Part shown: positions 1-12,505 of the stretch, piece by piece
Layout of the letters: each line of letters begins with the position of its first letter
How positions within the stretch are numbered: the stretch's first letter is position 1
IMG/VR virus record: IMGVR_UViG_2671180747_000010
Coordinates: 1-12,505 of that record
Origin: a virus
Taxonomy: Duplodnaviria; Heunggongvirae; Uroviricota; Caudoviricetes
Strand: one strand, 5' to 3'
DNA length: 12,505 nucleotides
Position numbers and translations under genes: made by a program
The notes under the pieces: generated by a model
Told to the model about the DNA's origin: nothing
The model's database searches: none
The model's input: the letters and a program-made list of their open reading frames with translations, nothing else

Positions 1-6
1 TCGGGG

Positions 7-31
7 AAAAAAAACCCCGCCAGTGGCGGGG
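7..31 (-). terminator. Intrinsic terminator, tR'-like (minus strand)
   Basis: Perfect 7-bp GC-rich stem CCCCGCC(15-21)/GGCGGGG(25-31) with 3-nt loop; on the minus strand it is followed by an 8-nt T run (plus-strand A8 at 7-14). Confidence 0.55.
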
Positions 32-50
32 ATCTTTTGATAAAAACGAC

Positions 51-74
51 AAAGGCACCATTAAGGTGCCTTTT
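51..74. terminator. Hairpin with flanking T-runs on both strands (possible bidirectional terminator)
   Basis: Stem GGCACC(54-59)/GGTGCC(65-70), 5-nt loop, extended by AAA/TTT pairs; followed by TTTT on the plus strand and TTTGTCGTTTTT on the minus strand. Confidence 0.35.
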
Positions 75-204
75 ACACAGGGCAGCAGGCTTGTCATCAC
101 CTTATTGCTACTCCTGGCTTCCAGTTCGGAAGTCTCACAAGTCCCATCAGGGTACAGCGACAGTATCAGTCAACACTCTATGATTCTGCTGAACAGGCAG
201 TTTC

Positions 205-340
205 GCACTGTACATTATAACCTGTTAAGCCAACAAAAAACCCGCTCGGCGGCGGGGTTTGCTTACTTTGCCATCGCGAACAAAATCTGCAAAATATCAG
301 ATTTACACGGAATATATGCTCTTCAGTTCTATTTTGCAAG
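205..340 (-). promoter_or_regulatory. Candidate late promoter (pR'-like) region downstream of the Q-like gene
   Basis: Two minus-strand candidates: (a) -35 TTGCAA (334-339), 17-bp spacer, -10 TATATT (311-316), overlapping the Q stop; (b) a perfect -10 TATAAT (214-219) with a poor -35, placing a start ~195 nt upstream of the terminators at 7-74. Sequence-only call. Confidence 0.3.
235..257 (-). terminator. Intrinsic terminator-like hairpin after the Q-like gene (minus strand)
   Basis: Stem CCCGC(241-245)/GCGGG(252-256) with 6-nt loop; on the minus strand followed by TTTTTT (plus-strand A6 at 235-240). Confidence 0.4.
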
Positions 341-1012
341 ATATGGTTCTAAATTAATCGACTTTTGCCGTGAACGTACCCGCATTACTGAAATAAGAGC
401 ATCCCTGTCCAGCATCTCTGCACTACCCCGCATAGCCAACCAGTGAGGCCTGTGTGTTTTTGTCCATGTAGATTTAGCAACTCCTATGAACACCGCTAAC
501 TCCTGATGTTCATAGGTCTCACGCCCTGCCAGCTCACTCTTCACATCCTGTGCCGCCAGCCAAATCAGTTTCTTCAGACGATCCAGCGTTTTCCCTGCAA
601 TTTTTCTGGTACCAGCCTGAGCTTTAAACTCACCCCATACCCATTGTGTTATAGTGACCTGATCTTCCCAGCAAACATTTCCACTGTAGCACCACAGTAA
701 CCACGCCTTCTGATGTTCTTCCAGTTCCAGAACGGCACGCCGCCACGATGATGTTGCAAACTCAACCGGACTGACCAGCGCAATTGATGAGCCTTTCGCC
801 AGTGATTGTTTACCCGGGATCGGTTGATTATCCCGCGTGATCATTTTTCCGGTTACCTCATCGCGATAACGAATTTTTTTGCGTCTGTAACGCCCTGTAT
901 CGAACAGGGCATTCTCCTGCCAGGCTTCCAGCTGGCCTTTTGTCGCCCCACTGAGATCCGCAGTGGCAATCATGAGTTGCTCACGAACAAACTGTAAATA
1001 CTGGTTATTCAT
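329..1012 (-). CDS. Phage antitermination protein Q-like (227 aa from ATG at 1012; a GTG at 1018 is also in frame)
   Basis: Position immediately downstream of rusA, with the ATG overlapping the rusA stop (ATGA), and immediately upstream of promoter-like sequence plus terminators. Size is typical of the longer Q families. Assignment is mainly contextual. Confidence 0.5.
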   Translation of the reverse strand: MNNQYLQFVREQLMIATADLSGATKGQLEAWQENALFDTGRYRRKKIRYRDEVTGKMITRDNQPIPGKQSLAKGSSIALVSPVEFATSSWRRAVLELEEHQKAWLLWCYSGNVCWEDQVTITQWVWGEFKAQAGTRKIAGKTLDRLKKLIWLAAQDVKSELAGRETYEHQELAVFIGVAKSTWTKTHRPHWLAMRGSAEMLDRDALISVMRVRSRQKSINLEPYLAK

Positions 1013-1368
1013 GCGCACTCCAGTTCTGTGATTTTTATCCCCAGCCGCCCGCCAGGAACAGGCAGGCCACGCACAATATTGATTTCATCAAACTGCTCAT
1101 CGTCCATTAACAACCCCGCATGCGTAAGCGCATCCAGCGGCGCTTTCAGAATATTGTCCAGGTCACGGCGGCGCTTATCCGGTGGCTCTGCAATAATCCT
1201 GATTACCAGCCTTCCGGACAGGCTTAATTTCAGCCGCTGCTGGTTAACAATAAGCGCCACAGCACGGCGATAGCGCTTTCCCTCCTCCGAGATAAAATAT
1301 GTGCTGCCACGACGACGCCAGTAGGTGTTCACCGTTGGCGGGTAAGGTAAAACCAAATCTATGAGCAT
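1009..1368 (-). CDS. rusA: Crossover junction endodeoxyribonuclease RusA (Holliday junction resolvase), 119 aa
   Basis: Translation MLIDLVLPYPPTVNTYWRRRG...PPDKRRRDLDNILKAPLDALTHAGLL...GGRLGIKITEL aligns along its length with E. coli RusA as I recall it (LPWPPSNNRYY...PDRRRRDLDNLQKA...GGRLELTITE). Strong SD AAGAGGTG upstream. Confidence 0.9.
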   Translation of the reverse strand: MLIDLVLPYPPTVNTYWRRRGSTYFISEEGKRYRRAVALIVNQQRLKLSLSGRLVIRIIAEPPDKRRRDLDNILKAPLDALTHAGLLMDDEQFDEINIVRGLPVPGGRLGIKITELECA

Positions 1369-1380
1369 CAGTCACCTCTT

Positions 1381-2430
1381 TTACCCGAGCACGCCAGTCG
1401 CAAAGGCGTGATCAAGAAAATGAAAAATTAACTCAACCTGGGACCCGTACTTTTTCTCAAACTCCAGCGGGTCAGCATGAAGTTCGTTGTGGTGCTCCCG
1501 GCACAACGGTAGTGTGAAAATATCGTGGGATTTTGTCCCCATACCGCCCTGCCCATGGCCAATCAAGTGATGCGGATCATCAGCTGGCTTTCCACAGCAT
1601 GCACACGGCTGCGTCTTAACCCAGCGCGTGAACTTTTCATTAACCCAGCGACGACGTTTAGGCCGTTTCATGAAAGATTCCGGGGACTCCGGATCAACGG
1701 CGATGCTTACTACCGTCTTTTCCTGTGGCGTGGTTTGTGGCTGGTGGGCGTGAAGCGGTGGCGCTATGTTTTTTGTCCGCTGCTTCAGGATGCTGGTGGC
1801 GGTCTGCTCTCCCGGTATGATGTCGCTCTCACTGTATACGGAGCGAATTTTTTCCACCGGTAATCCCAGCGAACGACGCAATACAGATTCCGGAAGCGCA
1901 TCAGCCACCTGATTGCAGACCGCCCACCAGGATAATTCAGCCAGCGATAATTCACGCTCCTGTGCGCCATTCATTACGTGACGGATGACGTCAATCATCC
2001 AGGCGGCCAGATTCTGTTGAGCAAGTAGCTCCAGTGAATCAGATGTCTGCTCCCGCAGGTGGTTGTCGCAGTGCCAGCACAACACCATCGCGCCGGTACT
2101 GTAACGGTGAATGACGGTTTCGCTGTGATGATAATCGCCGTGTGGCCACTGGCAGGATTTCACGTGACGTAATAACCAGTCAGACAGTACACCAGCGCCA
2201 CCCGCAGCACGGATCACCCGCTCATCGCTGAAAAATGGCAGTAATGATTTATCTTCCGCCAGCGGCTGGCGAACGGCAGGTACAAACCCGGACGGCAGAG
2301 CACGCATGCTTTTCGGTTCCGGCTCCACCAGCACCCTGCCGCAATGAAAAACAGGCAGTGATTCGCGTCCGGGCTTAAGGACCACCAGGCCAAGTTCCGG
2401 CACCAGAACAGGTCGAAGTAATACCCGCAC
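1381..2430 (-). CDS. Phage protein, DUF968/YdfU-like, with C-terminal Cys/His-rich HNH-like motif (349 aa)
   Basis: C-terminus QPCACCGKPADDPHHLIGHGQGGMGTKSHDIFTLPLCREHHNELH is a CxCC...HH...C..HH zinc-finger/HNH-like signature. Size and position upstream of rusA resemble YdfU-type nin-region proteins. GTG start preceded by GGAGG. Confidence 0.7.
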   Translation of the reverse strand: MRVLLRPVLVPELGLVVLKPGRESLPVFHCGRVLVEPEPKSMRALPSGFVPAVRQPLAEDKSLLPFFSDERVIRAAGGAGVLSDWLLRHVKSCQWPHGDYHHSETVIHRYSTGAMVLCWHCDNHLREQTSDSLELLAQQNLAAWMIDVIRHVMNGAQERELSLAELSWWAVCNQVADALPESVLRRSLGLPVEKIRSVYSESDIIPGEQTATSILKQRTKNIAPPLHAHQPQTTPQEKTVVSIAVDPESPESFMKRPKRRRWVNEKFTRWVKTQPCACCGKPADDPHHLIGHGQGGMGTKSHDIFTLPLCREHHNELHADPLEFEKKYGSQVELIFHFLDHAFATGVLG

Positions 2431-2431
2431 G

Positions 2432-2704
2432 TTACCTCCAGATACGTTGCTGGAATGTGCGGGACGGACGCGGTGGACGTTCGGAATAAGGGAGCCTGAC
2501 AGAGATTATCCAGTGACGATAATTGAGGCTGAGGGCTTTCTTAACCTCGTATCCGCGCCTGCGGTAACACTGAATCAGCCATTCGGCCTGTTCTTCAGTG
2601 CATGGAGGATGCTGGTACCAGTGGGTTTTAAATACGTGCGAATGCCGCCCCCGCTTAATGGCCGGGACGGCTTCAGAATTGTGGGATTTTATATGTTGCG
2701 CCAT
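2432..2704 (-). CDS. Hypothetical phage nin-region protein (90 aa from ATG at 2704; longer GTG start at 2722 possible)
   Basis: ORF ends 1 nt before the DUF968 gene start (operon-like). The ATG at 2704 has a GGAG SD 6 nt upstream. No family recognised. Confidence 0.45.
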   Translation of the reverse strand: MAQHIKSHNSEAVPAIKRGRHSHVFKTHWYQHPPCTEEQAEWLIQCYRRRGYEVKKALSLNYRHWIISVRLPYSERPPRPSRTFQQRIWR

Positions 2705-2722
2705 CGGGTTCTCCGGTGACAC

Positions 2723-2876
2723 AGCAGGTGCCAGTTGTTCAGGCTGGCTGGATGATTTTAACCAGAATGCGATAAAAAGTGTATAAGACCATCACATATT
2801 GCATTCATGCAAAATGATTGTTACATAATATTACTTAATAAGTATAGGTTTTACCGTTTTATCATTAGAAGATTGT
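2723..2876 (+). promoter_or_regulatory. AT-rich divergent intergenic region, probable promoter of the PAPS-reductase/ParB-like operon
   Basis: ~150 bp strongly AT-rich between divergently oriented genes. Contains TTGCAT (2799-2804) then a 17-bp spacer and TACATAATA. The exact promoter is not resolvable by eye. Confidence 0.3.
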
Positions 2877-4103
2877 ATGTCAGGAACCATAACAAAAATC
2901 AGCACAGGGGAAAATGTTCTGTCAGCAGCAATCCATCGCATTGAATGGTTGTTCGAAACGTTTAATGAGGTCTGCTTGTCTTTTTCTGGTGGCAAAGACT
3001 CTACTGTGCTTTTCCATCTTGTGGCAGAAGTCGCCAGTAGAAAAAAACGTCGTTTTTCGGTTTTATTCATTGACTGGGAAGCCCAATATCAGTGCACGAT
3101 TAATCATATCCAAAAGATGAGGGAAATGTACCGGCATGTGACAGACAATTTTTACTGGGTAGCGCTTCCTCTGACTACGGTAAATGGCGTCTCTCAGTTT
3201 CAGCCAGAATGGATATGTTGGGAGCCAGGTGTAGAATGGGTTCGTCAGCCACCAGATGACGCTATTACAGATATGTCGTATTTCCCATTTTATCGGTATG
3301 CCATGACGTTTGAAGAATTTGTTCCGGCATTTTCTTCCTGGTTTGCCGGTAACCGATGTGGAGTGGGAATACTAACTGGTGTTCGTGCTGATGAATCGCT
3401 CAATCGCTTTATGGGACTGGTGTCTCAGCGCAAACTGAGATATGCAGATGATAAACCCTGGACCACCGCTTCACCCGATGGTTTTTACTACACCATGTAT
3501 CCATTGTATGACTGGAAAACAAATGATATATGGACGTATAACTCAAGAACCCGCGCCATCTACAATCCCCTGTACGACCTAATGTACCGTGCCGGAGTGT
3601 CGTTACGCAACATGCGTGTTTGTGAGCCCTTTGGCCCGGAACAGCGTAAGGGGCTGTGGCTTTACCATGTTCTGGAGCCGGAAACCTGGGCCAGGATGTG
3701 TGAGCGAGTGTCAGGGGCTGCCAGTGGCGCTCTTTATGCCAATGAAAGCGGTGCCTATTTTGCTCTGCGTAAACGAATCACAAAACCGGCTCATCATACC
3801 TGGCGCAGCTACGCAATGTTCATGCTGGATGTTATGCCAGAAAGAACAGCAGAACATTACCGTAACAAAATTGCAGTCTACCTGCGCTGGTATCAGACGC
3901 GGGGCTTCCCGGATGATATCCCGGATGAACAGGAGAATGACCTGGGGAGCCGGGATATCCCGTCCTGGCGACGTATCTGTAAGACGCTCATAAAGAATGA
4001 CTTCTGGTGCCGGACCCTCTCCTTCAGTCCGAACAAACCCCGGCACTATGAGCGTTATCTGCAACGAATGAAGGAAAGGAGGAAAGAATGGGGGATTCTG
4101 TGA
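2877..4103 (+). CDS. PAPS-reductase-family PP-loop protein (IbrA/YbdN-like; DndC/SspD superfamily), 408 aa
   Basis: N-terminal SFSGGKDS PP-loop ATP-pyrophosphatase motif; length ~406 aa matches YbdN/IbrA. Followed by an overlapping ParB-like gene, as in ybdNM/ibrAB. Confidence 0.85.
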   Translation: MSGTITKISTGENVLSAAIHRIEWLFETFNEVCLSFSGGKDSTVLFHLVAEVASRKKRRFSVLFIDWEAQYQCTINHIQKMREMYRHVTDNFYWVALPLTTVNGVSQFQPEWICWEPGVEWVRQPPDDAITDMSYFPFYRYAMTFEEFVPAFSSWFAGNRCGVGILTGVRADESLNRFMGLVSQRKLRYADDKPWTTASPDGFYYTMYPLYDWKTNDIWTYNSRTRAIYNPLYDLMYRAGVSLRNMRVCEPFGPEQRKGLWLYHVLEPETWARMCERVSGAASGALYANESGAYFALRKRITKPAHHTWRSYAMFMLDVMPERTAEHYRNKIAVYLRWYQTRGFPDDIPDEQENDLGSRDIPSWRRICKTLIKNDFWCRTLSFSPNKPRHYERYLQRMKERRKEWGIL

Positions 4104-4732
4104 CGCCTGAGATGGATGTACTAAGCAACATGATTCGTCAGTACTTCAGTCGGGAACAGCCCGAAGAAGAGTCCATACGAGCCCTTAACCATCTGCGCAG
4201 GGTACTGCATGAAGTCAGTCCTTTTGCACAGGAGCCTGTAGACTGTGTGCTGTGGGTGAAAGCGGATGAGGTGGTAGCCAACGATTATAACCCCAATGTC
4301 ATGGCACCAAGTGAGAAGAAACTGCTGAAGCAGTCACTGGAAAAAGATGGTTTCACACAACCGGTGGTGGTGTCAGAGGAGAAGAATCATTATCTGGTGG
4401 TGGATGGTTTTCATCGTCAGTTATTGGGCAGAGAATCAGTTACAGGAAAACGTCTGAGGGGCTGGCTGCCTGTAGCCTGTATTAATCCAGAGAGAAAAGG
4501 GCAAGCCGCACGCATTGCCGCAACCATTCGACATAACCGGGCTAGGGGGAAACACCAGATAGACTCAGTGTCTGATATTGTAAGAGATCTTTCACGCTTG
4601 GGATGGGCAGATGAACGCATTGGCACTGAGTTGGGTATGGATCAGGATGAAGTACTGAGACTTAAACAAATTAGCGGGCTAACTGAGTTATTTCAGGAAG
4701 TGGATTTCAGCCCGGCATGGACAGTTAAATAG
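4088..4732 (+). CDS. ParB/sulfiredoxin-fold (DGxHR-like) protein, IbrB/YbdM-like, 214 aa
   Basis: VVDGFHRQ motif and an arginine-rich segment (ARIAATIRHNRARG) typical of ParB N-terminal-domain/DndB-like proteins. Start overlaps the upstream gene by 16 nt with an AGGAGG SD (translational coupling). Confidence 0.8.
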   Translation: MGDSVTPEMDVLSNMIRQYFSREQPEEESIRALNHLRRVLHEVSPFAQEPVDCVLWVKADEVVANDYNPNVMAPSEKKLLKQSLEKDGFTQPVVVSEEKNHYLVVDGFHRQLLGRESVTGKRLRGWLPVACINPERKGQAARIAATIRHNRARGKHQIDSVSDIVRDLSRLGWADERIGTELGMDQDEVLRLKQISGLTELFQEVDFSPAWTVK

Positions 4733-4785
4733 CAAGCTCGACTTACTCCCGGCAAGGCAACAAAATGATAACTAATACAACTCAA

Positions 4786-4808
4786 GGGCGATTAATATCG
4801 CCCCTTTT
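4786..4808. terminator. Hairpin between convergent genes (possible bidirectional terminator)
   Basis: GGGCGAT(4786-4792) TAAT ATCGCCC(4797-4803) followed by CTTTT on the plus strand. The T tract is weak. Confidence 0.35.
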
Positions 4809-4897
4809 ACTGCTCAATTTTCGACCGATACATCTACTTGACTCTCGTTTTACTCCCCCTTTTTACCCGATATGGAAATTCCCATATCGTAATGAAT

Positions 4898-5002
4898 TCA
4901 GCTCCCCAGACGATCCATCAAAAGCACGACCAGGCAGTAAACACCCACAACAACAATAACGGCCAGAGCGCCTTCCATTGCCAGTGAGATATCATCCGAC
5001 AT
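4898..5002 (-). CDS. Small hydrophobic peptide (34 aa), predicted single transmembrane helix
   Basis: ATG preceded by AAGGAGG SD. Translation MSDDISLAMEGALAVIVVVGVYCLVVLLMDRLGS. Not in the supplied ORF track (below its size cut-off). Confidence 0.45.
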   Translation of the reverse strand: MSDDISLAMEGALAVIVVVGVYCLVVLLMDRLGS

Positions 5003-5037
5003 ATTCCCTCCTTTGGTGTGAATCCCGGCGAACGTTT

Positions 5038-5121
5038 TTACCCCCACCGACAAATAACATATATTAAAAAAGCGATAACCATAGCAACGCCTGTAATTGC
5101 AAATGCTTCAGGCCAGTTCAT
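5038..5121 (-). CDS. Small hydrophobic peptide (27 aa), predicted single transmembrane helix
   Basis: ATG overlaps the stop of the upstream DUF551 gene (ATGA) and is preceded by AGGAGGTG SD. Translation MNWPEAFAITGVAMVIAFLIYVICRWG. Confidence 0.45.
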   Translation of the reverse strand: MNWPEAFAITGVAMVIAFLIYVICRWG

Positions 5122-5630
5122 TGGCGCACCTCCTGCGGCGGTTCTGGTAGCGGCATCCAGCCGGTTACATTGCGGCTCTGTGTTTCGAAAAATTCATCAC
5201 CATTACGGACTACATCAAAAAACTCACCGTCTCGATATTGCGCATAAAGAACGAATGCGCCATCACATAAAATAATTACGTGCTGACCATCATCCGGCAT
5301 TCGCTCACTACAGCTTATCCAACCATCCGGAGTTACCGGATAGTTGGTTGACGTTTCCGAGATTTCCCGAAAATTATTGGTTGACGACCCCTTATTTTCC
5401 CGAAAGTTTCCAGCCTGAAGCATGGCGGCGCGGTGACACCAGATAATCCAGCCAAGCGCCATATCCCATGCCATGTATTCTCTATCGCCATTTTTTGCTC
5501 TGCGGCGATCTACAGATTCTCCGAAACGCTTCTCCATAAATAATTCATAGGCTGCTCGTTCATCCGATACTGCTGCCAGTGATGCCAGCGCAATCCGTGC
5601 CAGCTCTTCCGCTTCTTCTGCTGGAAGCAC
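5118..5630 (-). CDS. DUF551-type phage protein (170 aa from GTG); likely N-terminally disrupted (see finding)
   Basis: C-terminal DGWISCSERMPDDGQ...GWMPLPEPP resembles the DUF551 signature (W-x-S-x-x-D-x-LP ... GWMPLP). An in-frame upstream ATG at 5705 with SD is cut off by TGA at 5682-5684. Confidence 0.6.
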   Translation of the reverse strand: MLPAEEAEELARIALASLAAVSDERAAYELFMEKRFGESVDRRRAKNGDREYMAWDMALGWIIWCHRAAMLQAGNFRENKGSSTNNFREISETSTNYPVTPDGWISCSERMPDDGQHVIILCDGAFVLYAQYRDGEFFDVVRNGDEFFETQSRNVTGWMPLPEPPQEVRQ

Positions 5631-5977
5631 AACGTTGCTACCCGGTCCGTATGTTTCGCGCCAATGCTGGATTGTCAGCAGTCAATCTTTGGTAATAGTG
5701 GTCATGCCGCGTTTCCTTCTTTCTTATTGTAACCAGGTGAATCATTTGATACCAACGAGGGTTTTAGTGAAAGGAGGTGAAATCACCTGTAAGATACTGA
5801 AATAAAACAGGTGATGTCTGGATGAGCGCTTAAAGTCTATTTGATATCGATTGTGCAATAATTAATCGTTTATTCTAAAATCGGCAAAACTTTTGATACT
5901 GCGATCTCAACTTTTTAAAGCGTTTAAAACTTCATTAAATCTATATGGCAACTAACATACGGGCCAGCCTCGCCAAA

Positions 5978-6508
5978 CTAACCCGCTTTAGATTCTACCG
6001 GATTTGATTGCCTACTTGTCTCGGTTTTTTCCAAAATCTCTCTGACGCAATCGTCTGGCATATCTACAATCATCAACGCAGCCAGGCGCTTCCTGCCTTC
6101 TAGTTGTAATAAATCTTGGTTTTCTTTATTCAGCAGTGTCAGAACCGTCTCTACACCTTTGCGAGCAAGGAGATTGGTTAACTGTTCTCGTTCGTCTTTC
6201 GTAAGGAATGAAAGCATCTGTGTAAGCTGATCTCCCTTATCACCAGAACAACCAAAATTACCATAAATACCAATATCGTTTGGTAATTCACCCTTGCCCT
6301 CTTTAAGCCACTCAAGACTAACGCCTTCACTTTCAGAAATTCGTATAAGGATACTTTCTCTGGGGGCTGGTTGTGTTTGTCCTCCCTTGAAATAGCTGTT
6401 TAATGTGTTGATATTGATTCCCCACGCTCTGGCAGCTGCACTTCTTGAAGGGTAGCGCTTTGTAAGCATTCCAATACGTTCAATAACAGGTTCTTTTCCC
6501 TGCGACAT
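5978..6508 (-). CDS. Mu-like prophage repressor (c-like), HTH DNA-binding protein, 176 aa from ATG at 6508
   Basis: Leftward gene divergent from ner/A/B, as for Mu c. ATG at 6508 has an AAGAGG SD; the track's longer 6583 start lacks one. Putative HTH segment RSAAARAWGININTLNSYFKG; C-terminal part loosely resembles Mu c. Confidence 0.7.
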   Translation of the reverse strand: MSQGKEPVIERIGMLTKRYPSRSAAARAWGININTLNSYFKGGQTQPAPRESILIRISESEGVSLEWLKEGKGELPNDIGIYGNFGCSGDKGDQLTQMLSFLTKDEREQLTNLLARKGVETVLTLLNKENQDLLQLEGRKRLAALMIVDMPDDCVREILEKTETSRQSNPVESKAG

Positions 6509-6590
6509 AAAGATACCTCTTGGTGCTTTTCTAAGGAAAGGTTTCTTTCTATTTATCCAATTGAAAAATAAGGATAAAAGCAAAAATTAG

Positions 6591-6639
6591 CCAAAATACC
6601 AAAAATACCTTGATTTGGTATTTTTGGTGATGCATTATT
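6591..6639. promoter_or_regulatory. Operator-like palindrome overlapping a candidate early promoter (Pe-like) for ner-A-B
   Basis: Perfect 12-bp inverted repeat ACCAAAAATACC (6598-6609) / GGTATTTTTGGT (6617-6628) with a tandem CCAAAATACC copy at 6591-6600. Overlaps -35 TTGATT (6610-6615), 18-bp spacer, TG-extended -10 ATTATT (6634-6639). Confidence 0.45.
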
Positions 6640-6650
6640 TACCCGTACAG

Positions 6651-6670
6651 ATATCCGCACGAATATCCGC
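6651..6670. promoter_or_regulatory. Direct repeat ATATCCGC x2 at 12-bp spacing upstream of ner (possible Ner/IHF-type site)
   Basis: ATATCCGC at 6651-6658 and 6663-6670, between the candidate Pe and the ner SD. Confidence 0.25.
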
Positions 6671-6698
6671 GCGGGTAACTTTTTAGAATAGAGGAAGT

Positions 6699-6947
6699 AT
6701 GAGTAGAAGAGAAGTTTCAGATCACGATTGGCCGCCTGAAATCATCAAGGCGCGCTTACACATGGCTGGCTTATCACTGCGCTCTTTATCTTTAAAGGCT
6801 GGTTACAGCAGGGATTCGCTGAAAAGCGTATTACGTACTCCTTGCCGACCGTATCAGCAAATAATTGCTGATGCTCTTGGGGTATCACCTGAAGAAATCT
6901 GGCCCAGTCGATACCAGGTTAAGAGCTATATGAGAAAGGCGTCATGA
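6699..6947 (+). CDS. ner: Ner-like DNA-binding transcriptional regulator (Mu Ner / Nlp family), 82 aa
   Basis: DWPPEIIKARLHMAGLSLRSLS...IIADALGVSPEEIWPSRYQ matches Mu Ner / E. coli Nlp (DWHPADIIAGLRK...IWPSRY). SD GAGGAAG upstream; located between repressor and transposase. Confidence 0.88.
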   Translation: MSRREVSDHDWPPEIIKARLHMAGLSLRSLSLKAGYSRDSLKSVLRTPCRPYQQIIADALGVSPEEIWPSRYQVKSYMRKAS

Positions 6948-6948
6948 T

Positions 6949-9039
6949 ATGTATGTCATTGCAAAAGAACTGATTGGCGCGCCCGGAATGCCTGCTACAA
7001 CAAAAGGTATTCGCCAGGCATTACAACGTTACGTACAAGGGAAAAGCTGTTGTTCCCGTCGTCGCTCAGGCTCTAAAGCAACTGAATACAGCATCGACTG
7101 TTTACCTGAAGTGACGCAGCAGGCATTACGTGAACGCTACGCCCTGCAACTGATGACGCAAAAAGCCGATGAATCACCGGCTCCGGTGGTGACAAAGGCC
7201 AGACGCTCACCTGCCGTGGTTGATGCGGTGGAGGCATATCGCGGATCACCCCAACTGATGGTCGAACGCCTCAATGCCCTGACTGAAAACCAACGTAAAG
7301 TGGCAGAGGCACGAATAGCGATCGTCAGCGAGGTGCTGAAAATCGCGCAACAACCCGGCTTTAGTTGCGCTAAGGCTATCCGGTTCCTCGTTAACAGCCT
7401 GGCACGATCACAACTGGACGAGCGCATTGTGGCAATGGTTGAGACGGCGAACGCCAAAAAGGGAAACAGCCGCGCGTTGAGTGAAATCACGCTGAAACGC
7501 TGGATTGCGGCCTTTAACAAGGCACAGAACGCCGCTGAACGCCTGCTTTTACTGGCACCGGGTAAACGCCAGGAAATAAAAGCCGAAGATATTAACTGGC
7601 TGCCCGAATTTCTGGCGCAGTATCGCCAGTCAAACGGCCGACCAATGACCGAGGCTTACGAGGATTTTGTTGCTGAATGGCAGCACCGGCACGCTGATGA
7701 GCCTTATATGCTCGATATCATGCCCTCTTATGACACCATTCGCCGCGCAATGAAGAAACTGCCGGAAGTGGTGAAACAAAAAGGCCGGGTAACTGGCAGT
7801 GAATACCGTCAGCTTGAGGGATTCACGCGCCGCGACTGGTCCAGAATGCCGGTGAATTATGTCTGGATTGGTGACGGTCACGGCATGAAGCTGAAATGCG
7901 CGCACCCGGTTCACGGGCGGCCATTCGCACCGGAAGTGACCTTTGTTATCGACGGTGGCACGCGCTTTGTGGTGGGCTGGAGCCTTGACCTGGCTGAAAA
8001 TGTTTTCGCCGTAGCCGGTGCCATACAGCACGGTATTCGCCATCATGGCAAACCGTTTCTGTATTACTCGGATAATGGCTCCGGGGAAACCGCCGACGTC
8101 CTGGATAAGGAGATTGTGGGGATACTGCCACGACTGGGGATTAATCACCCGACAGGGATTGCCGGTAATCCGCAGGGACGGGGCATTATCGAACGGCTTA
8201 ACCGCACATTACCGATGCGCATAGCCCGTAAATACCGCACCTATTTCGGGAAAGGAGCAGATCGCGAGACGTTACGTAAAACCAACCGCGATTTACGCTC
8301 GGCATTCAGTGCCCTGCAACAGGGCAAACGGCTGAACGCCCGGCAGCAGTCAGCGATGCGTGATTTACCGTCCTGGTCTGAACTGATTGATGCCATTCGT
8401 GACGGTGTTGAGTGGTACAACAACCGGCCGCACGATGAATTACCCATGAAGCCGAACGGTAAACATTACAGCCCGGCGGAGTTCAGAAAAAAACGCCTGG
8501 CGGAAGAGGACACGGAAATTGAATGGCTGTCCGATGTGGAATTGCGGGACATGTTCCGGCCGATGGTGGAACGCCCTGTAAGACGCTGTGAAATACGCTG
8601 GCTGAATAATATTTACTACGCGCCCGAGCTGCGTGATGAACATGGCCGCAAAGTGCTTATCAGCTATGACATTCATGATGCCGAACGAATTACCGTGCGT
8701 CGCCTGGATGGCAGCGTGATTTGCGAGGCGGTATGGGACGGCAATAAACGCGAAGCCTTCCCGGTCAGCGCGGAATACTACAAACAGCAGCAGCGTCTTA
8801 AAGGCATGCGTAAACGCGCAGAGGAAAAAATTCGTGATGCCGAGGATGAGGTTATCAACGTGCTGGAGCACAAGCCGCAGGAGCCATGGCTGGAAAACAT
8901 ATACCGCCCTATGGGTAATACGGTGGCCGTTCAGCAGCCAGCGATTGATGATGAACCTGACGAAGAATACGAGCGTAATTTCCAGCGGGGATTACAGCTG
9001 CTTGAAGCGAAATTAAAAGAAAATGACCCGCTGGCCTGA
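6949..9039 (+). CDS. Mu-type DDE transposase (MuA-like), 696 aa
   Basis: Starts 2 nt after the ner stop. Candidate DDE-region motifs VWIGDGHG and YYSDNGSG. C-terminus YRPMGNTVAVQQP...DEEYERNFQRGLQLLE resembles the MuA C-terminus (FRPSGNTERV...DDEYETERDEYLNHSLDILE, from memory). Confidence 0.92.
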   Translation: MYVIAKELIGAPGMPATTKGIRQALQRYVQGKSCCSRRRSGSKATEYSIDCLPEVTQQALRERYALQLMTQKADESPAPVVTKARRSPAVVDAVEAYRGSPQLMVERLNALTENQRKVAEARIAIVSEVLKIAQQPGFSCAKAIRFLVNSLARSQLDERIVAMVETANAKKGNSRALSEITLKRWIAAFNKAQNAAERLLLLAPGKRQEIKAEDINWLPEFLAQYRQSNGRPMTEAYEDFVAEWQHRHADEPYMLDIMPSYDTIRRAMKKLPEVVKQKGRVTGSEYRQLEGFTRRDWSRMPVNYVWIGDGHGMKLKCAHPVHGRPFAPEVTFVIDGGTRFVVGWSLDLAENVFAVAGAIQHGIRHHGKPFLYYSDNGSGETADVLDKEIVGILPRLGINHPTGIAGNPQGRGIIERLNRTLPMRIARKYRTYFGKGADRETLRKTNRDLRSAFSALQQGKRLNARQQSAMRDLPSWSELIDAIRDGVEWYNNRPHDELPMKPNGKHYSPAEFRKKRLAEEDTEIEWLSDVELRDMFRPMVERPVRRCEIRWLNNIYYAPELRDEHGRKVLISYDIHDAERITVRRLDGSVICEAVWDGNKREAFPVSAEYYKQQQRLKGMRKRAEEKIRDAEDEVINVLEHKPQEPWLENIYRPMGNTVAVQQPAIDDEPDEEYERNFQRGLQLLEAKLKENDPLA

Positions 9040-9120
9040 AATAAAAAAATAACCCGAGGGGTAACTCAGGTTATTTGGGTTTCAGTCTCGGAGAATGCTG
9101 TCTCAAGCGAGGTAAATAAT

Positions 9121-10053
9121 ATGACTGATATTAACGATGTAATCAAGACCATAGATGAACTTATTGATGGCGGCGTACTGACGCAGTATGCCATCGCCAG
9201 GGAGGCGGGAATTTCCGACGGCACATTATCGGCTTTCCGCAAAGGGAAATATAAAGGAGACAATGATGCTATAACGGCGGCCATGCTTTCCTGGTATGAA
9301 AACTGGAATAAACAAAGCGCACTGTCCGAGCTGCCACAGTTTGTGGAAACGCAGACAGTCCAGGAGCTGCGCGCACTGTTTCAGGCGGTTCGCCTGATGG
9401 GCTGTATTAACGTCATAGTGGGCGTGCCGGGTGTGGGTAAAACGGCCACCGCCCGTAATTACTGCCAGGAGCAACCGAACACCTGGATGATCACCCTGTC
9501 ACCCGCGCACTCCAGCGTCACGGAGTGTCTGCTGGAGCTGGCAGAGGAACTGGGGATTGATTACACCCGCGCGAACAAAGGGGCATTATCCCGCGCCATC
9601 CGCCGTCGCCTGATGGGAAAGCGCGGACTGGTGATTGTTGATGAGGCTGATCATCTTGGTATTGACGGTCTGGAGCAACTCCGGGCAATCCAGGACGCCA
9701 CAGGGGTCGGGATGGTGCTTATTGGTAACCCAAAGGGGCTGTTTAAAGGCGGACGCCGCGCCGTTGATGATTTATCTCGCCTGTTCAGCCGTCTTGCCCG
9801 TACAAAACAACTACGCAAGGCCAAAAAAGCGGATGTGCTGGCTATTGCCAGGGCATGGGGGATTAGTGGTGAGGCCGAGCTGGCTGTCATGCAGGCTATC
9901 GCTGAAAAACCGGGGGCATTACGCGTTCTGACGCATACGCTTAACCAGGCGTGGATCACCGCCAGCGGTGAAGGTGCGGCACTGACAGAAAAACATATTA
10001 ATGCGGCCTTTAAAGAGGTTTATGCCAACCCTGAATTACTCTCACAGGTGTGA
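9121..10053 (+). CDS. Mu B-like transposition ATPase / target DNA activator, 310 aa
   Basis: Walker A GVPGVGKT. Extensive similarity to Mu B as recalled (GTLSAFRKGKYKGDN vs GTISSFINDKYNGDN; LPQFVETQTV; GLVIVDEADHLG; KKADVLAIA; KPGALRVL). SD GAGGT upstream. Confidence 0.92.
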   Translation: MTDINDVIKTIDELIDGGVLTQYAIAREAGISDGTLSAFRKGKYKGDNDAITAAMLSWYENWNKQSALSELPQFVETQTVQELRALFQAVRLMGCINVIVGVPGVGKTATARNYCQEQPNTWMITLSPAHSSVTECLLELAEELGIDYTRANKGALSRAIRRRLMGKRGLVIVDEADHLGIDGLEQLRAIQDATGVGMVLIGNPKGLFKGGRRAVDDLSRLFSRLARTKQLRKAKKADVLAIARAWGISGEAELAVMQAIAEKPGALRVLTHTLNQAWITASGEGAALTEKHINAAFKEVYANPELLSQV

Positions 10054-10055
10054 TT

Positions 10056-10277
10056 ATGATTGCATTTAATATTCCTGATATTTACGGACGCTTTCACCTG
10101 GTGAATTTCGATAACGTCAAAGCAGTCTCCGTGTCTGACAGTGAAGAATGTGGCGATTTACTTTTTGAATTTAATGATCGCACCAGAATGGCAATATCGG
10201 CAGGACTTGATCGTGAAGGTGCGAAAGAAGCTTACAGCAATATTTGTCGTTTTATCGGTGCAAAACGAATCAGCTAA
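10056..10277 (+). CDS. Small protein in the Mu kil position (73 aa from ATG at 10056)
   Basis: Immediately follows the B stop (GTG at 10050 overlaps it; ATG at 10056 has an AGGTG SD). Size and position match Mu kil, but no sequence-level recognition. Confidence 0.5.
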   Translation: MIAFNIPDIYGRFHLVNFDNVKAVSVSDSEECGDLLFEFNDRTRMAISAGLDREGAKEAYSNICRFIGAKRIS

Positions 10278-10289
10278 ACGAGGTGTTAT

Positions 10290-10922
10290 ATGAATACGCA
10301 GATACAGCAGGAAATCAATGTTCTCCACAGCTTTCGAGAGTTTAACGACAATGGCTGTGAGGTTCGTGATTATATCTATGAATTGATGATCGGTGATGGT
10401 GTGTGTTTTCTGTATATAGACCTGTATCAGTGGTATGCAGACATGCAACTTGATTCCATCAGACGCCGTTTTAATCATGAATGCTTTGATGTGGATGTAT
10501 GGGAAAGCCTGCGCTTTGGTTTTCTGATTATGGATGATTATCGCCAGGGGTGGCGACACGGTTACTCCATTCTTCGTGCAATCATGCGTGGCGAAACCCG
10601 AAAAATTCCGGGGATGGGTAAAGTTAATCGAGGCTTCCTGTCAGAGCTGGCTGCATTGCGCATGAATCCATTACTGATACAACCGGAGTTCCCTATGAAT
10701 TTGTTTGATTCACTGAATAACGCCCGCCGCCTGACTGAACTTGCTGGTGCGGTACTGGAGCGCAGCAAACGCTACCCGCAACGTTTTGCACTGAAAACCA
10801 CGCCGCCGGTAAACGAAGTTAAGGGAACCGGTGAAATTGAAATCACCGTTAAGACCAACGGCCTGCGCCGCCGTGTGAAGGCCACCCGTATAAGCGGATG
10901 CACGGTTTACTGGGAAGTATGA
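10290..10922 (+). CDS. Hypothetical protein of the Mu-like early (semi-essential) region, 210 aa
   Basis: Long ORF co-oriented with the early operon with a GAGGTG SD. No recognisable motifs. Confidence 0.55.
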   Translation: MNTQIQQEINVLHSFREFNDNGCEVRDYIYELMIGDGVCFLYIDLYQWYADMQLDSIRRRFNHECFDVDVWESLRFGFLIMDDYRQGWRHGYSILRAIMRGETRKIPGMGKVNRGFLSELAALRMNPLLIQPEFPMNLFDSLNNARRLTELAGAVLERSKRYPQRFALKTTPPVNEVKGTGEIEITVKTNGLRRRVKATRISGCTVYWEV

Positions 10923-10996
10923 AGTTGCTTCATGGTTCGGCTCTGTCATCAGGTCAGACGCCGGGTCAGTTATCCGAACAAAACGAGGACCAGAGG

Positions 10997-11194
10997 ATGA
11001 GTAAAGTCGTACGCATTATTTTCGAATACAAGGAGCACGTTATCCATAAAAACGCGGATGGAACAGTGCGCATGGGGGTAAGTCTGGACATACGTTCAAC
11101 CGGGATAAAGCAGAAAGGTGATGGACCTGCCATGATTTTTGGGGGGGGGTTATGCTCGCGGAAAGCAGAGACTTTGCTGAACTTGTGGCAATGA
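10997..11194 (+). CDS. Hypothetical early-region protein, probably truncated by a frameshift at the G9 tract (intact reading would be 10997..11271, ~104 aa)
   Basis: ATG at 10997 with SD AGGACCAGAGG. A 9-G homopolymer at 11141-11149 separates it from an open frame that runs to a stop at 11269-11271, 5 nt before gam. Confidence 0.4.
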   Translation: MSKVVRIIFEYKEHVIHKNADGTVRMGVSLDIRSTGIKQKGDGPAMIFGGGLCSRKAETLLNLWQ

Positions 11195-11275
11195 AAGCCA
11201 GTGCGCTCATGAAAGATATGGACATGAGTTCCGGGGTTATTAAAGGTAATGAATTTAATCAGCAGGGGTAATTCC

Positions 11276-11827
11276 ATGAGCAAAGTACGNNNNNNNNNNN
11301 NNNNACGCGTTACAAAATTAAAGGCCGCAGCCGAGGCGGCACCGCAGACCCGTGAAGAGGTCAGCCGCGATATCCGACGCTTTGGGGATATGCAGCGTGA
11401 GGCACTACGCCTGGAAACGGCGATGAATGACGAAGTGGCAGAAATCACCGCCCGTTATACGCCGCAGATTGAAAACCTTAAAAAAGAAATCAAAGTGCTT
11501 TTTAAGGGGATTCATGACTGGTGTAAAACCAACCGCAATGAGCTGACGAACGGCGGTGAAACCAAAACTGCCAATCTGACCACCGGAACGGTGTCATGGC
11601 GGCTGGGAAATCCATCATGCAGCGTCAGTCGTGATGTGGAAGGTGTGATTGAAATGCTGCGTCGTATGGGGCTTGAGCGCTTCATCCGCACGAAAGAGGA
11701 AGTGAATAAGCAAGCTGTCCTGGCAGAGCCGGATGCGGTGAAAGGGATTGCGGGTATTAAGGTGAATAAAGGCGCTGAAAATTTTCATGTCGAGCCTTTT
11801 GAACAGGACGCCGGACTGAATAAATAA
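11276..11827 (+). CDS. gam: Host-nuclease inhibitor Gam (Mu Gam family), ~183 aa, containing a 15-N gap
   Basis: DIRRFGDMQREALRLETAMNDEVAEIT...NELTNGGETKTANLTTGTVSWR...LERFIRTKEEVNK...EPFEQDAG matches Mu Gam as recalled (DIKRIGDLQREASRLETEMNDAIAEIT...DELTNGGKVKTANLVTGDVSWR...LQRFIRTKQEINK...IPFEQEAG). Confidence 0.88.
   Translation: MSKVXXXXXXRVTKLKAAAEAAPQTREEVSRDIRRFGDMQREALRLETAMNDEVAEITARYTPQIENLKKEIKVLFKGIHDWCKTNRNELTNGGETKTANLTTGTVSWRLGNPSCSVSRDVEGVIEMLRRMGLERFIRTKEEVNKQAVLAEPDAVKGIAGIKVNKGAENFHVEPFEQDAGLNK
11290..11304. other. Run of 15 ambiguous bases (N) - assembly/scaffold gap or masked bases inside gam
   Basis: Directly visible in the sequence; true length of the missing segment is unknown. 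Confidence 1.
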
Positions 11828-11911
11828 CACCGCATTAAATCTTTAAATATCACATCGTTTTAATTATGGCGCTCGCGTCAGGGGACTGCTCGCGCCTGAA
11901 TGAGGCATGTC

Positions 11912-12490
11912 ATGAGTATTAAATATCGTTATTTTAAAATGAATGAGAGCGATTCCCGTCATTATCACAGGGAATGGCTTGATTGTGTTGGCAGGGAGCG
12001 CCAGAAATTGATTGATGATTTTCTCAGTAATCAGAATGCCAGAGGGTATTGTTATTCCTGGTATTGTGGGGATTTTTTTGTCAAATCAATACTGGTGCAT
12101 GAGGATGTTGATGTCGGAAGAAATAAACGGGTGTTGTCTGATAAATTTGATGAAGATGGCCGTACTTTATTTTCAGTTAAGCCCGACCGCAGATTCAGAG
12201 AGGGAAAAAAACTGAACAAAGCACTGAATATCTTAAACGAGAAGTTAAAACAGCTTCCGTCATTCAGTACCTGGATGGTTAATAAACTGGACTGCTATTT
12301 TGAGGTTTTTGGTGTCAGCAACGGCCGCACAGTTATGGCGTGCTCTTCTGCCGGGTTCTATGGCGACAAAGGGGCTGTTGTGGTTCGTATTCCTGTCGGT
12401 GAATCAGATAATGCCTTTTCACCTGAAAAGCTGCATCCGTCATTGATGGCAATCAAGCATTCCGAATTCATCGCAATAACGGAGGAATAA
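11912..12490 (+). CDS. Hypothetical protein, AT-rich accessory gene downstream of gam (192 aa from ATG at 11912)
   Basis: ATG at 11912 with GAGG SD 6 nt upstream (the track's start at 11900 lacks one). No recognisable motifs; the gene looks AT-rich by eye relative to the neighbouring A/B/gam genes. Confidence 0.55.
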   Translation: MSIKYRYFKMNESDSRHYHREWLDCVGRERQKLIDDFLSNQNARGYCYSWYCGDFFVKSILVHEDVDVGRNKRVLSDKFDEDGRTLFSVKPDRRFREGKKLNKALNILNEKLKQLPSFSTWMVNKLDCYFEVFGVSNGRTVMACSSAGFYGDKGAVVVRIPVGESDNAFSPEKLHPSLMAIKHSEFIAITEE

Positions 12491-12493
12491 TTC

Positions 12494-12505
12494 ATGATTG
12501 ATGCA
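12494..12505 (+). CDS. 5' end of a further early-region gene (partial, runs off the window)
   Basis: ATG at 12494 preceded by GGAGG SD (12481-12485). Only 4 codons visible. Confidence 0.3.

Follow-up and report, generated by a model that had tools for sequence, protein, structure and literature searches.

What occupies the space between the antiterminator gene Q of a lambdoid prophage and its late genes is the question raised by the first few hundred bases of IMG/VR virus record IMGVR_UViG_2671180747_000010, whose positions 1 to 12,505 constitute the window (the whole stretch of DNA analysed here). Downstream of a Q-like gene, the minus strand of the window carries three hairpins followed by T-runs and two promoter-like sites, TTGCAA-17-TATATT overlapping the Q stop and a perfect TATAAT at 214-219. 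A first-pass annotation took these features for a Q-dependent checkpoint with tandem terminators. We propose, with good confidence, that the region is instead a minus-strand mosaic of three units, comprising late control (339-235), a cassette remnant (234-43) and a boundary terminator (31-7). The middle unit contains a structured RNA with strong covariation, which has no Rfam entry, recurs in lineages from several assigned phyla, and is linked to an uncharacterised toxin family. The checkpoint was right in outline, in that a Q-controlled promoter and terminator region is present, but its three terminators are not one tandem unit. Since the middle one is the 3' end of the structured RNA, the three have three different origins. 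Hairpins taken for "tandem terminators" in phage late leaders can conceal whole RNA genes.

Results

A structured RNA at positions 155-43

On the strength of model score and covariation, positions 155-43 are assigned as an intact, orphan member of a new RNA family, the terminator of which is its own hairpin at 73-51. The parts of the RNA are as follows.

43-155, minus strand: structured RNA of the toxin-linked family, 113 nt (covariance model R1, covariation)
152-150/145-143, minus strand: helix H1 of this RNA
142-133, minus strand: conserved single strand ACUUGUGAGA of this RNA
132-128/122-118, minus strand: helix H2 of this RNA
116-106/87-78, minus strand: helix H3 of this RNA, with inner GGU/GCC pairs at 101-99/90-88
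98-91, minus strand: conserved loop GAUGACAA, within H3
43-73, minus strand: terminator hairpin (73-65/59-51) and U-rich tail (50-43), the 3' end of this RNA

A copy in strain A34, 79% identical, keeps the long hairpin through several double changes. This copy prompted exact-motif scans of viral contigs, which gave many variants, and covariance model R1 was built on 14 variants of close or medium similarity, its structure of three helices (the third, long one in two segments) and a terminator being drawn by hand. Positions 155-43 of the window score 127.8 bits against R1 (E ~1e-31) and span model positions 1-114 of 114. In 28 distinct sequences, 97.0% of cells are paired, and 24 of 30 pairs have changes on both sides. 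The cells with double changes number 79; shuffles give 15.1 +/- 3.5, with 0 of 500 as high as observed, and sliding the partners gives 10-16. It counts against these figures that the alignment used for the pair count was fitted to the model, which inflates pairing, although the margin is large. The unpaired motifs GGGACUUGUGAGAC, GGYGAUGACAAGCC and UUUGUCNUUU hardly vary even between the most distant copies, which come from metagenome-assembled genomes (MAGs) with different phylum assignments. Rfam 15 returned no family match at the RNA position in twelve copies (eleven loci and the first 1200 nt of the window).

Two other candidates were set aside. Weak Rfam matches to GcvB and to a Leu leader at 6-133 were dismissed as being due to the terminators, and a pseudoknot CUUG(U)/(A)CAAG, suggested by the invariance of both sides, is not claimed, as no covariation is seen and one variant breaks a pair.

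The hairpins themselves, as well as both promoter-like sites, are real. A scan of positions 1-1500 recovered the three minus-strand stem-loops with T-runs that had been described, at 256-241 (followed by T6), 73-51, and 31-15 (followed by T8), among 7 terminator-like sites, where shuffles gave 1.6 +/- 1.2. Relative to shuffled sequence, the fold z-scores were -5.3 for the hairpin at 73-51, -3.2 for that at 31-15, and -0.4 for the first hairpin. That the hairpins and the promoter-like hexamers arose by chance in an intergenic spacer might be argued from the first hairpin, which alone is no better than shuffles, and from the TATAAT, since one perfect match among 680 scanned positions is not improbable. 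This explanation is contradicted by the excess of terminator-like sites, by conservation across genera with compensatory changes, and by the E value that R1 gives the 155-43 RNA, and we regard it as extremely improbable.

The 494-bp toxin block

The origin of the middle unit is suggested by its distribution. Bases 1-234 are matched in just 37 of 5426 E. coli genomes and show no DNA similarity to the phage records of the collection (lambda records included, if present there). In 24 of the 37 matching genomes, the alignment is split at 181|180 by an extra 494 bp, a block seen nowhere else in the collection, which contains a 133-aa PemK/MazF-like gene (PF02452, E 5e-14) and the TTGACA -35 of a promoter for the RNA. 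The features concerned are these.

214-219, minus strand: TATAAT hexamer without a -35, its role being deduced from relatives
180-181, no strand: junction lacking the 494-bp block (BLAST of the window against L006 and L007)
162-167, minus strand: GATACT, the -10 left over from the RNA's own promoter, the -35 of which is absent in the window

In the phage copies of most lineages, the RNA is directly preceded by a sigma-70 promoter of its own, of the form TTGAC(A/T)-17-(A/G)ATACT, which is conserved in toxin-bearing relatives although their spacers are variable. Between these two hexamers lies the end of the missing block, and for that reason the -35 of this promoter is gone in the window. In the toxin-bearing relatives, the TATAAT is found ~85 nt upstream of the start codon of the MazF-like toxin and is probably the promoter of the toxin cassette. 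In the window, it has no -35 hexamer 16-18 nt upstream, the promoter scan made no call there, and it would drive a 5'-extended form of the structured RNA.

Unit 2 (234-43) can accordingly be pictured as what may remain of a two-gene cassette that consisted of a promoter piece (TATAAT), a gene for a MazF-fold toxin of the YifN type, and the 113-nt RNA, which in relatives forms the 3' end and the terminator of the toxin gene. As the toxin gene is absent, the window copy does not lie directly downstream of one in the same orientation and is an orphan, whose transcription could come only from the TATAAT or by read-through from the late promoter pR'. It weighs against a remnant that the 494-bp difference is compatible with either a deletion in the window or an insertion in the relatives.

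Association of the RNA with YifN-type toxins

The toxin family corresponds to the JGI label YifN (PemK superfamily, COG3692), for which a database search gave 892 proteins at E <= 1e-5. A structure model of the toxin (pLDDT 90) has a MazF fold, with TM scores of 0.69/0.82 to Staphylococcus aureus MazF at 16% identity, while in sequence it is marginally similar to solved structures. Neither PADLOC nor NCBIfam annotated the toxin, and PHROGs placed it in phrog_15698, of unknown function. Nothing relevant was found in the literature on YifN, on COG3692, or on an RNA antitoxin paired with MazF in prophages.

Homologues of the toxin were retrieved via an alignment of the toxin proteins, down to 44% identity. 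In every intact one (L123, L124, L125, L126/L130 and L128), the RNA is located 12-90 nt downstream on the same strand and scores 39-68 bits. At seven more distant loci, it starts from 20 nt before to 55 nt after the toxin stop and scores 39-78 bits (49-78 for L131, L134, L136 and L137; 39-56 for L139-L141); the source labels of these loci are Actinomadura (a metagenome contig), Caulobacteraceae, Anaerolineales, Pasteurellaceae, Xenorhabdus, a Rep3 replicon, and another metagenome contig. Neither the copies in L123-L128 nor the more distant ones were used in building R1. An intact toxin gene is accompanied by the RNA in 16 of the 16 lineages tested, and among these no intact toxin gene without the RNA was found. 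The RNA without a toxin gene occurs in the window lineage, L008, A34, L057, L061 and L063, and L035 also has an orphan copy. In L008, bases 1-152 of the window are present behind a lambda-type Q (PF03589, 273 aa). The toxin-RNA pair has varied surroundings: it follows Q genes of three kinds or a baseplate gene, sits between tail and antirepressor genes, and occurs on a plasmid-like Rep3 contig and within chromosomal operons. Given such contexts, the pair moves as a unit.

Several decayed or neighbouring elements were seen at these loci. In L127 (1201-1620), the toxin homologue is decayed, with several stops and frameshifts, and no RNA is present downstream, while the pseudogene in L129 retains the RNA. 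In E. coli K-12 (L138, 2406-2456, minus strand), a degenerate 51-nt remnant of the RNA (7.6 bits, E 0.16) lies directly 3' of the yifN pseudogene, and its H1 helix and linker are recognisable. Close to a toxin-RNA pair, the Pasteurellaceae prophage of L136 has a match to sRNA-Xcc1 at 1837-1922 (55.8 bits), and L125 has a C4 antisense RNA at 2457-2567 (52 bits) beside an antirepressor gene.

Possible functions of the RNA

The constant company of the two genes raises the possibility, which we favour tentatively and at somewhat less than an even chance, that the 113-nt RNA binds and restrains the toxin in the manner of a type III antitoxin. A little more guardedly still, it may be an obligatory partner of the widespread YifN (COG3692) MazF-fold toxins, most likely an antitoxin that binds via its invariant unpaired motifs ACUUGUGAGA and GAUGACAA. 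In type III toxin-antitoxin systems (ToxIN, CptIN and TenpIN), the antitoxin RNA consists of short repeats in tandem and lies upstream of the toxin gene; it binds and neutralises the toxin, by which it is processed. What the present pair has in common with them is an endoribonuclease-like protein toxin tightly linked to a co-oriented non-coding RNA in one transcription unit, and the fact that copies of the RNA exist without the toxin, whereas no intact toxin gene was seen to lack the RNA. Unlike those antitoxins, the RNA described here has no repeat array; it is a single-copy, non-repetitive, four-helix RNA of 113 nt, located downstream and doubling as the terminator, and the toxin is closest to MazF proteins. 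The resemblance is drawn from the linkage in 16 of 16 lineages and from the MazF fold. A further difference is that some loci have a candidate protein antitoxin: at non-phage loci, an upstream overlapping open reading frame (ORF) resembles one (HTH_3 in one case), and this weakens the idea of an RNA antitoxin. The pemK RNA motif of Rfam, located in the 5' untranslated region (UTR) upstream of pemK genes in Firmicutes, is likewise a conserved structured RNA associated with PemK-family toxin genes, but differs in that 5' position, and it had no match at the RNA positions in the Rfam scans of the eleven loci and the first 1200 nt of the window.

The RNA might also have nothing to do with the toxin, and be a leader or terminator of the late operon (like 6S RNA) or a 3' UTR element upstream of which the toxin landed as a moron. 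This would account for L008, L057, L061 and L065, in which the RNA follows a lambda-type Q, precedes holin genes, and has no toxin gene, an arrangement that also speaks against an antitoxin, and it would suit the intrinsic terminator in which the RNA always ends. Such a role is, however, difficult to reconcile with the pairs far from any Q gene (those at the tail/antirepressor and baseplate genes, on the Rep3 replicon, and in the chromosomal operons of distant MAGs), with the near invariance of the unpaired motifs between MAGs of different assigned phyla, or with the presence of the RNA in every one of the 16 intact-toxin lineages. We therefore consider it unlikely.

Less probable again is a trans-acting antisense regulator (type I-like), the conserved loop of which would pair with the 5' UTR of the toxin mRNA and block translation. 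Complementarity was assessed by an ungapped scan with shuffled controls, as RNAduplex on whole sequences gave meaningless full-length duplexes. In the clade of L114, L117, L119, L120 and L121, the toxin mRNA has, at -28 to -14, a stretch of 11-15 nt (UUGUCAUCACC) that is the perfect complement of GGUGAUGACAA in the RNA, with a z of 2-3 versus shuffles, and E. coli SE11, whose toxin is WP_012565093, has two adjacent matches of 9-10 nt. Yet this complementarity is confined to the one clade and is missing from L123-L128 and from every distant lineage, and the unpaired motifs of the RNA are invariant whereas the 5' UTRs are not conserved.

If the RNA is indeed an antitoxin, the window copy would be an orphan antitoxin that doubles as an extra terminator, and it could protect the lysogen against such toxins brought by other phages. 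The pair would then represent a new class of RNA-protein toxin-antitoxin system, with a highly structured, single-copy RNA that is encoded by the 3' end of the toxin gene itself. In any case, the link between RNA and toxin provides a testable hypothesis for how YifN-type toxins are controlled.

The phage-82-type late promoter

Upstream of the cassette remnant, unit 1 begins inside the end of Q and has the following features.

329-1018, minus strand: Q antiterminator gene of the phage-82 type (Pfam PF06323, Phage_antiter_Q, E 1e-88)
311-339, minus strand: late promoter pR' of the 82 type, -35 TTGCAA (339-334), 17-nt spacer, -10 TATATT (316-311) (promoter scan and homology)
280-304, minus strand: initial transcribed region, predicted +1 = A304 (element conservation and the published 82 layout)
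299-291 (+6 to +14), minus strand: extended -10-like pause element TGATATTTT, fitting the 82 pR' layout
290-288 (+15 to +17), minus strand: GCA, followed by an A/T-rich tract; relatives have GCC
280, minus strand: U280, the predicted +25 pause site, fitting the 82 pR' layout
235-256, minus strand: first terminator tR'1, stem CCCGC/GCGGG and T6 (240-235) (scan, fold and covariation)

The Q protein of the window covers profile positions 1-217 of 220 in PF06323 and thus belongs to the Q82 family. In RefSeq relatives, its start is the ATG at 1011. The gene is ~79% identical to phage 82 Q at the nucleotide level over 500-1015, and its last ~170 nt (the C-terminal part) have diverged from phage 82 Q in DNA sequence. 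Its stop codon, TAG, is at 331-329, and the -35 hexamer at 339-334 overlaps the end of the gene, in agreement with the promoter proposed there. Homology identifies this TTGCAA-17-TATATT with high confidence as a pR' of the phage-82 type, a matter of known biology, and the Q-binding element is expected inside 311-339.

The ~120 nt 3' of the Q stop align with phage 434, PPompW prophages, and E. coli SE11 at the same place; at the aligned site, phage 434 has a Q82-like gene and an annotated terminator. Relatives of Q were sampled at one genome per species, which gave 26 loci (56-76% protein identity) in 10 or more genera (Citrobacter, Kluyvera, Enterobacter, Atlantibacter, Phytobacter, Leclercia, Lelliottia, Siccibacter and others). 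In all of these except L034, TTGCA(A)-17-(C/T)ATATATT lies over the Q stop and is followed by (A/G)TGTAAATCTGATAT, a variable stretch, a GC hairpin, and a T-run. The same promoter architecture was found behind the Q82-family genes of phage 434, PPompW, SE11, Gifsy-1 (at isrJ) and 22 other-species loci. The arrangement is common to 27 aligned loci, as is AAATCTGATAT, which is nearly invariant among them, and the window has the promoter of the Q82/qut module, which recurs behind Q82-family genes at about 25 enterobacterial loci.

In 82 pR', as studied by Bird, Strobel, and Roberts, an extended -10-like pause element is followed by GCC at +15-17, an A/T-rich stretch at +18-25, and a U at +25, where polymerase pauses (PMC5001585), and the qut function resides within -31 to +30 (PMC4914094). 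SE11 and PPompW have all of the published features when the first A of AAATCTG is taken as +1. With +1 at A304, the window has TGATATTTT at +6 to +14, GCA at +15-17, and U at +25. Compared with the late control region of phage 82 (Q82, pR'82/qut), it therefore shares the Q family PF06323, the promoter over the end of Q, the extended -10-like element at +6 to +14, the G/C element at +15-17, the A/T-rich tract to U +25, and an intrinsic terminator within ~70 nt. It differs in having A rather than C at +17 and in being followed by two more terminators and an RNA gene.

In the proposed mechanism, a constitutive sigma-70 pR' overlapping the Q stop would drive minus-strand late transcription. The -10-like element with its TG extension, located in the first 25 bases of the transcript, is expected to stall RNA polymerase near +25 and so let DNA-bound Q load. 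When Q is absent, tR'1 would release an RNA of ~66-70 nt; when Q is present, polymerase should pass tR'1 and all downstream terminators into the late genes at the left.

Several points weigh against this reading. The likeness to 82 pR' was judged from published positional features by way of relatives, and not from the phage 82 pR' sequence itself. The window has A at +17, where its relatives have C, and in 82 pR' the single changes +15A, +16A and +17A are the three reported to roughly halve the pause's half-life (PMC5001585). In addition, tR'1 has only five GC pairs (z = -0.4). Because of this stem and the +17A change, late control may be leaky, and start site, pause, termination, and Q dependence are all deduced for this prophage by comparison. 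The promoter and terminator would then be another copy of a well-studied switch, with a natural +17A variant that should shorten the pause.

A separate hairpin was seen in the pR' RNAs, in the stretch between the pause element and the terminator (293-258 of the window, minus strand). It is present in 22 of 23 related loci (alignment A4), and the conserved GCC at +15-17 forms part of its 5' arm. For the 3' arm, there are four sequence classes, unrelated to one another, with two pairing registers, and the +17A of the window breaks one pair.

The first terminator and IsrJ

RNAalifold on 23 relatives gave 8 pairs for tR'1, 4 of which have compensatory changes, and homology to many relatives stops at 233-235. 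Termination at the T-run 240-235 is predicted to give a pR' RNA of 66-70 nt (304 to ~235), and a short constitutive minus-strand RNA of ~65 nt, one of two lengths anticipated earlier, is thus what homology would lead one to expect. At 307-236, the Rfam family isrJ (RF01393) matches with 21.5 bits, below its gathering cut-off of 37, so that the RNA is not placed in this family; the first 14 nt are identical to the model, but only the 5' 15 nt and the terminator match.

IsrJ of Salmonella Gifsy-1 is nevertheless informative. Downstream of antQ, this prophage has isrJ, isrK, a C4 antisense RNA and c4-a1b1 elements, all above the Rfam thresholds. IsrJ has the canonical TTGCAA-17-TATATT promoter upstream, and the RNA begins with the AAATCTGATAT element. 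It shares with the window RNA the promoter, the first ~11 nt from the predicted start (AAAUCUGAUAU), and an end formed by a GC hairpin and a U-run, but the middle 25-45 nt are unrelated, so that only the ends are shared. IsrJ was detected experimentally as a 74-nt RNA in Salmonella (PMC2330248); since its promoter and 5' end are homologous, there is a known case of such a module producing a short RNA in vivo. IsrK (RF01394) differs in that it lies directly after antQ but overlaps c4-a1b1 elements and has no canonical spacing. IsrJ may therefore be the short RNA from the 82-type late promoter, that is, the true pR' short RNA of Gifsy-1. Terminated pR' transcripts such as lambda 6S, StxS, and IsrK are abundant and sometimes act as regulatory small RNAs (PMC7547250).

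Two observations concern Gifsy-1 itself. An 82-type late promoter and pause element precede isrJ and not isrK (L003, 1392-1520 and 2228-2350), and the c4-a1b1 elements that IsrK overlaps are those of a P1-like C4/antirepressor module located between antQ and isrJ.

The TATAAT hexamer and lambda 6S RNA

A lambda-type pR' is characterised by a Q of PF03589, a -10-like AACGAT at +1 to +6, a pause at +16/17, and a leader of ~194 nt. The logic of lambda 6S RNA (pR'-tR', ~194 nt) and of StxS is the same as that proposed for the window, namely a constitutive late promoter terminated early in lysogens to give an abundant short RNA, but the window differs in Q family, in where the pause lies, and in RNA length (~70 nt predicted). 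The short RNA of the window is unlikely to be StxS, from which it is set apart by indirect evidence and not by direct comparison, because bases 1-234 lack DNA similarity to the phage records and only the 37 E. coli genomes match.

It had been suggested that the TATAAT at 219-214 is a late promoter and a target of Q, and that its ~195-nt transcript is the counterpart of lambda 6S. The hexamer is there, a perfect -10 lying ~200 nt from the last T-run, and in L008 the distal 152 nt do end a predicted ~192-nt leader with its start at a lambda-like pR' (TAAATT...AACGATGGG) that follows a lambda-type Q. In the window, however, the TATAAT has no -35, no -10-like pause element (nothing of the AACGAT type is found near it), and no Q-binding context. 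The Q gene is of the 82 type (PF06323), a conserved pR' and pause module already lies upstream at 339-280, the TATAAT segment borders the toxin gene on its 5' side in relatives, and no DNA similarity to any phage record was found (lambda included, if in the collection). A late promoter at this hexamer is thus very improbable, and the 6S counterpart is not supported. The familiar length of ~195 nt can be traced to the ~192-nt leader of the lambda-like pR' in L008, a promoter that the window does not have, and the likeness in length is a coincidence. The TTGCAA-17-TATATT at 339-311 remains the preferred late promoter.

The lambda-like pR' of L008 is located at 2680-2740 on the minus strand, where TAAATT is accompanied by the pause motif AACGATGGG, and the RNA element starts 47 nt further on. 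The predicted leaders in L008 are ~159 nt and ~192 nt.

The third terminator

7-31, minus strand: third terminator, stem CCCCGCC/GGCGGGG (31-15) and T8 (14-7) (scan, z = -3.2), at the boundary to the late region

This element would be unit 3 of the mosaic, one more terminator, placed at the late-region junction. L011 has just one terminator, which can be aligned to tR'1 as well as to the third terminator, and from there continues into the sequence left of the window; relative to L011, the window therefore has an insert of ~205 nt bounded by two similar terminators.

Bases 1-20 of the window differ from all near-identical relatives, and the third terminator has a 7-bp stem and T8 in the window, compared with 6 bp and T6-7 in those relatives. 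Just left of the window, in L001 (a near-identical relative; 11688-12010, minus strand), an ATG within the T-run of the third terminator opens a frame that continues into an annotated 66-aa hypothetical protein. This protein has a weak TrmB-like HTH, and the real gene may be ~104 aa.

Neighbouring genes

Positions 1-5728 of the window match, at 99.9% identity, a lambdoid prophage present in several E. coli strains of the Shiga-toxin type; S19-651 is an example of a strain with this prophage. RusA and DUF968 genes precede Q. The left flank of L001 encodes, in addition to the 66-aa ORF, a DNA methyltransferase, tRNA-Ile, tRNA-Arg, a SASA-type esterase, a holin, a lysozyme, and a terminase. As the left flank of the near-identical relatives holds late genes, the region studied is placed between Q and the late genes, and the late and lysis genes anticipated left of the window are represented by the holin, lysozyme, and terminase. 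The same flank was inspected for cargo, and no stx gene was found in that of the 99.9%-identical relatives (L001).

ORFs at 178-339 (minus strand) and 66-446 (plus strand) were rejected as genes, as they have no Pfam match and cross terminators.

Beyond 5728, the match to the lambdoid prophage ends, and the window from there to 12505 instead has 94-97% matches to a transposable, Mu-like prophage that those strains have at another site. The Mu-like genes in the window include a Mu transposase (6949-9039) and a MuB-like ATPase (9121-10053), together with Gam and DUF5420, and an end of the Mu-like phage appears to be joined to the lambdoid early region at ~5728. On the plus strand at 2877-4732, a PAPS-reductase-like gene (2877-4103) overlaps an IbrB-like gene (4088-4732). 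The two constitute a cargo pair of the IbrA/IbrB type, on the opposite strand inside the nin region.

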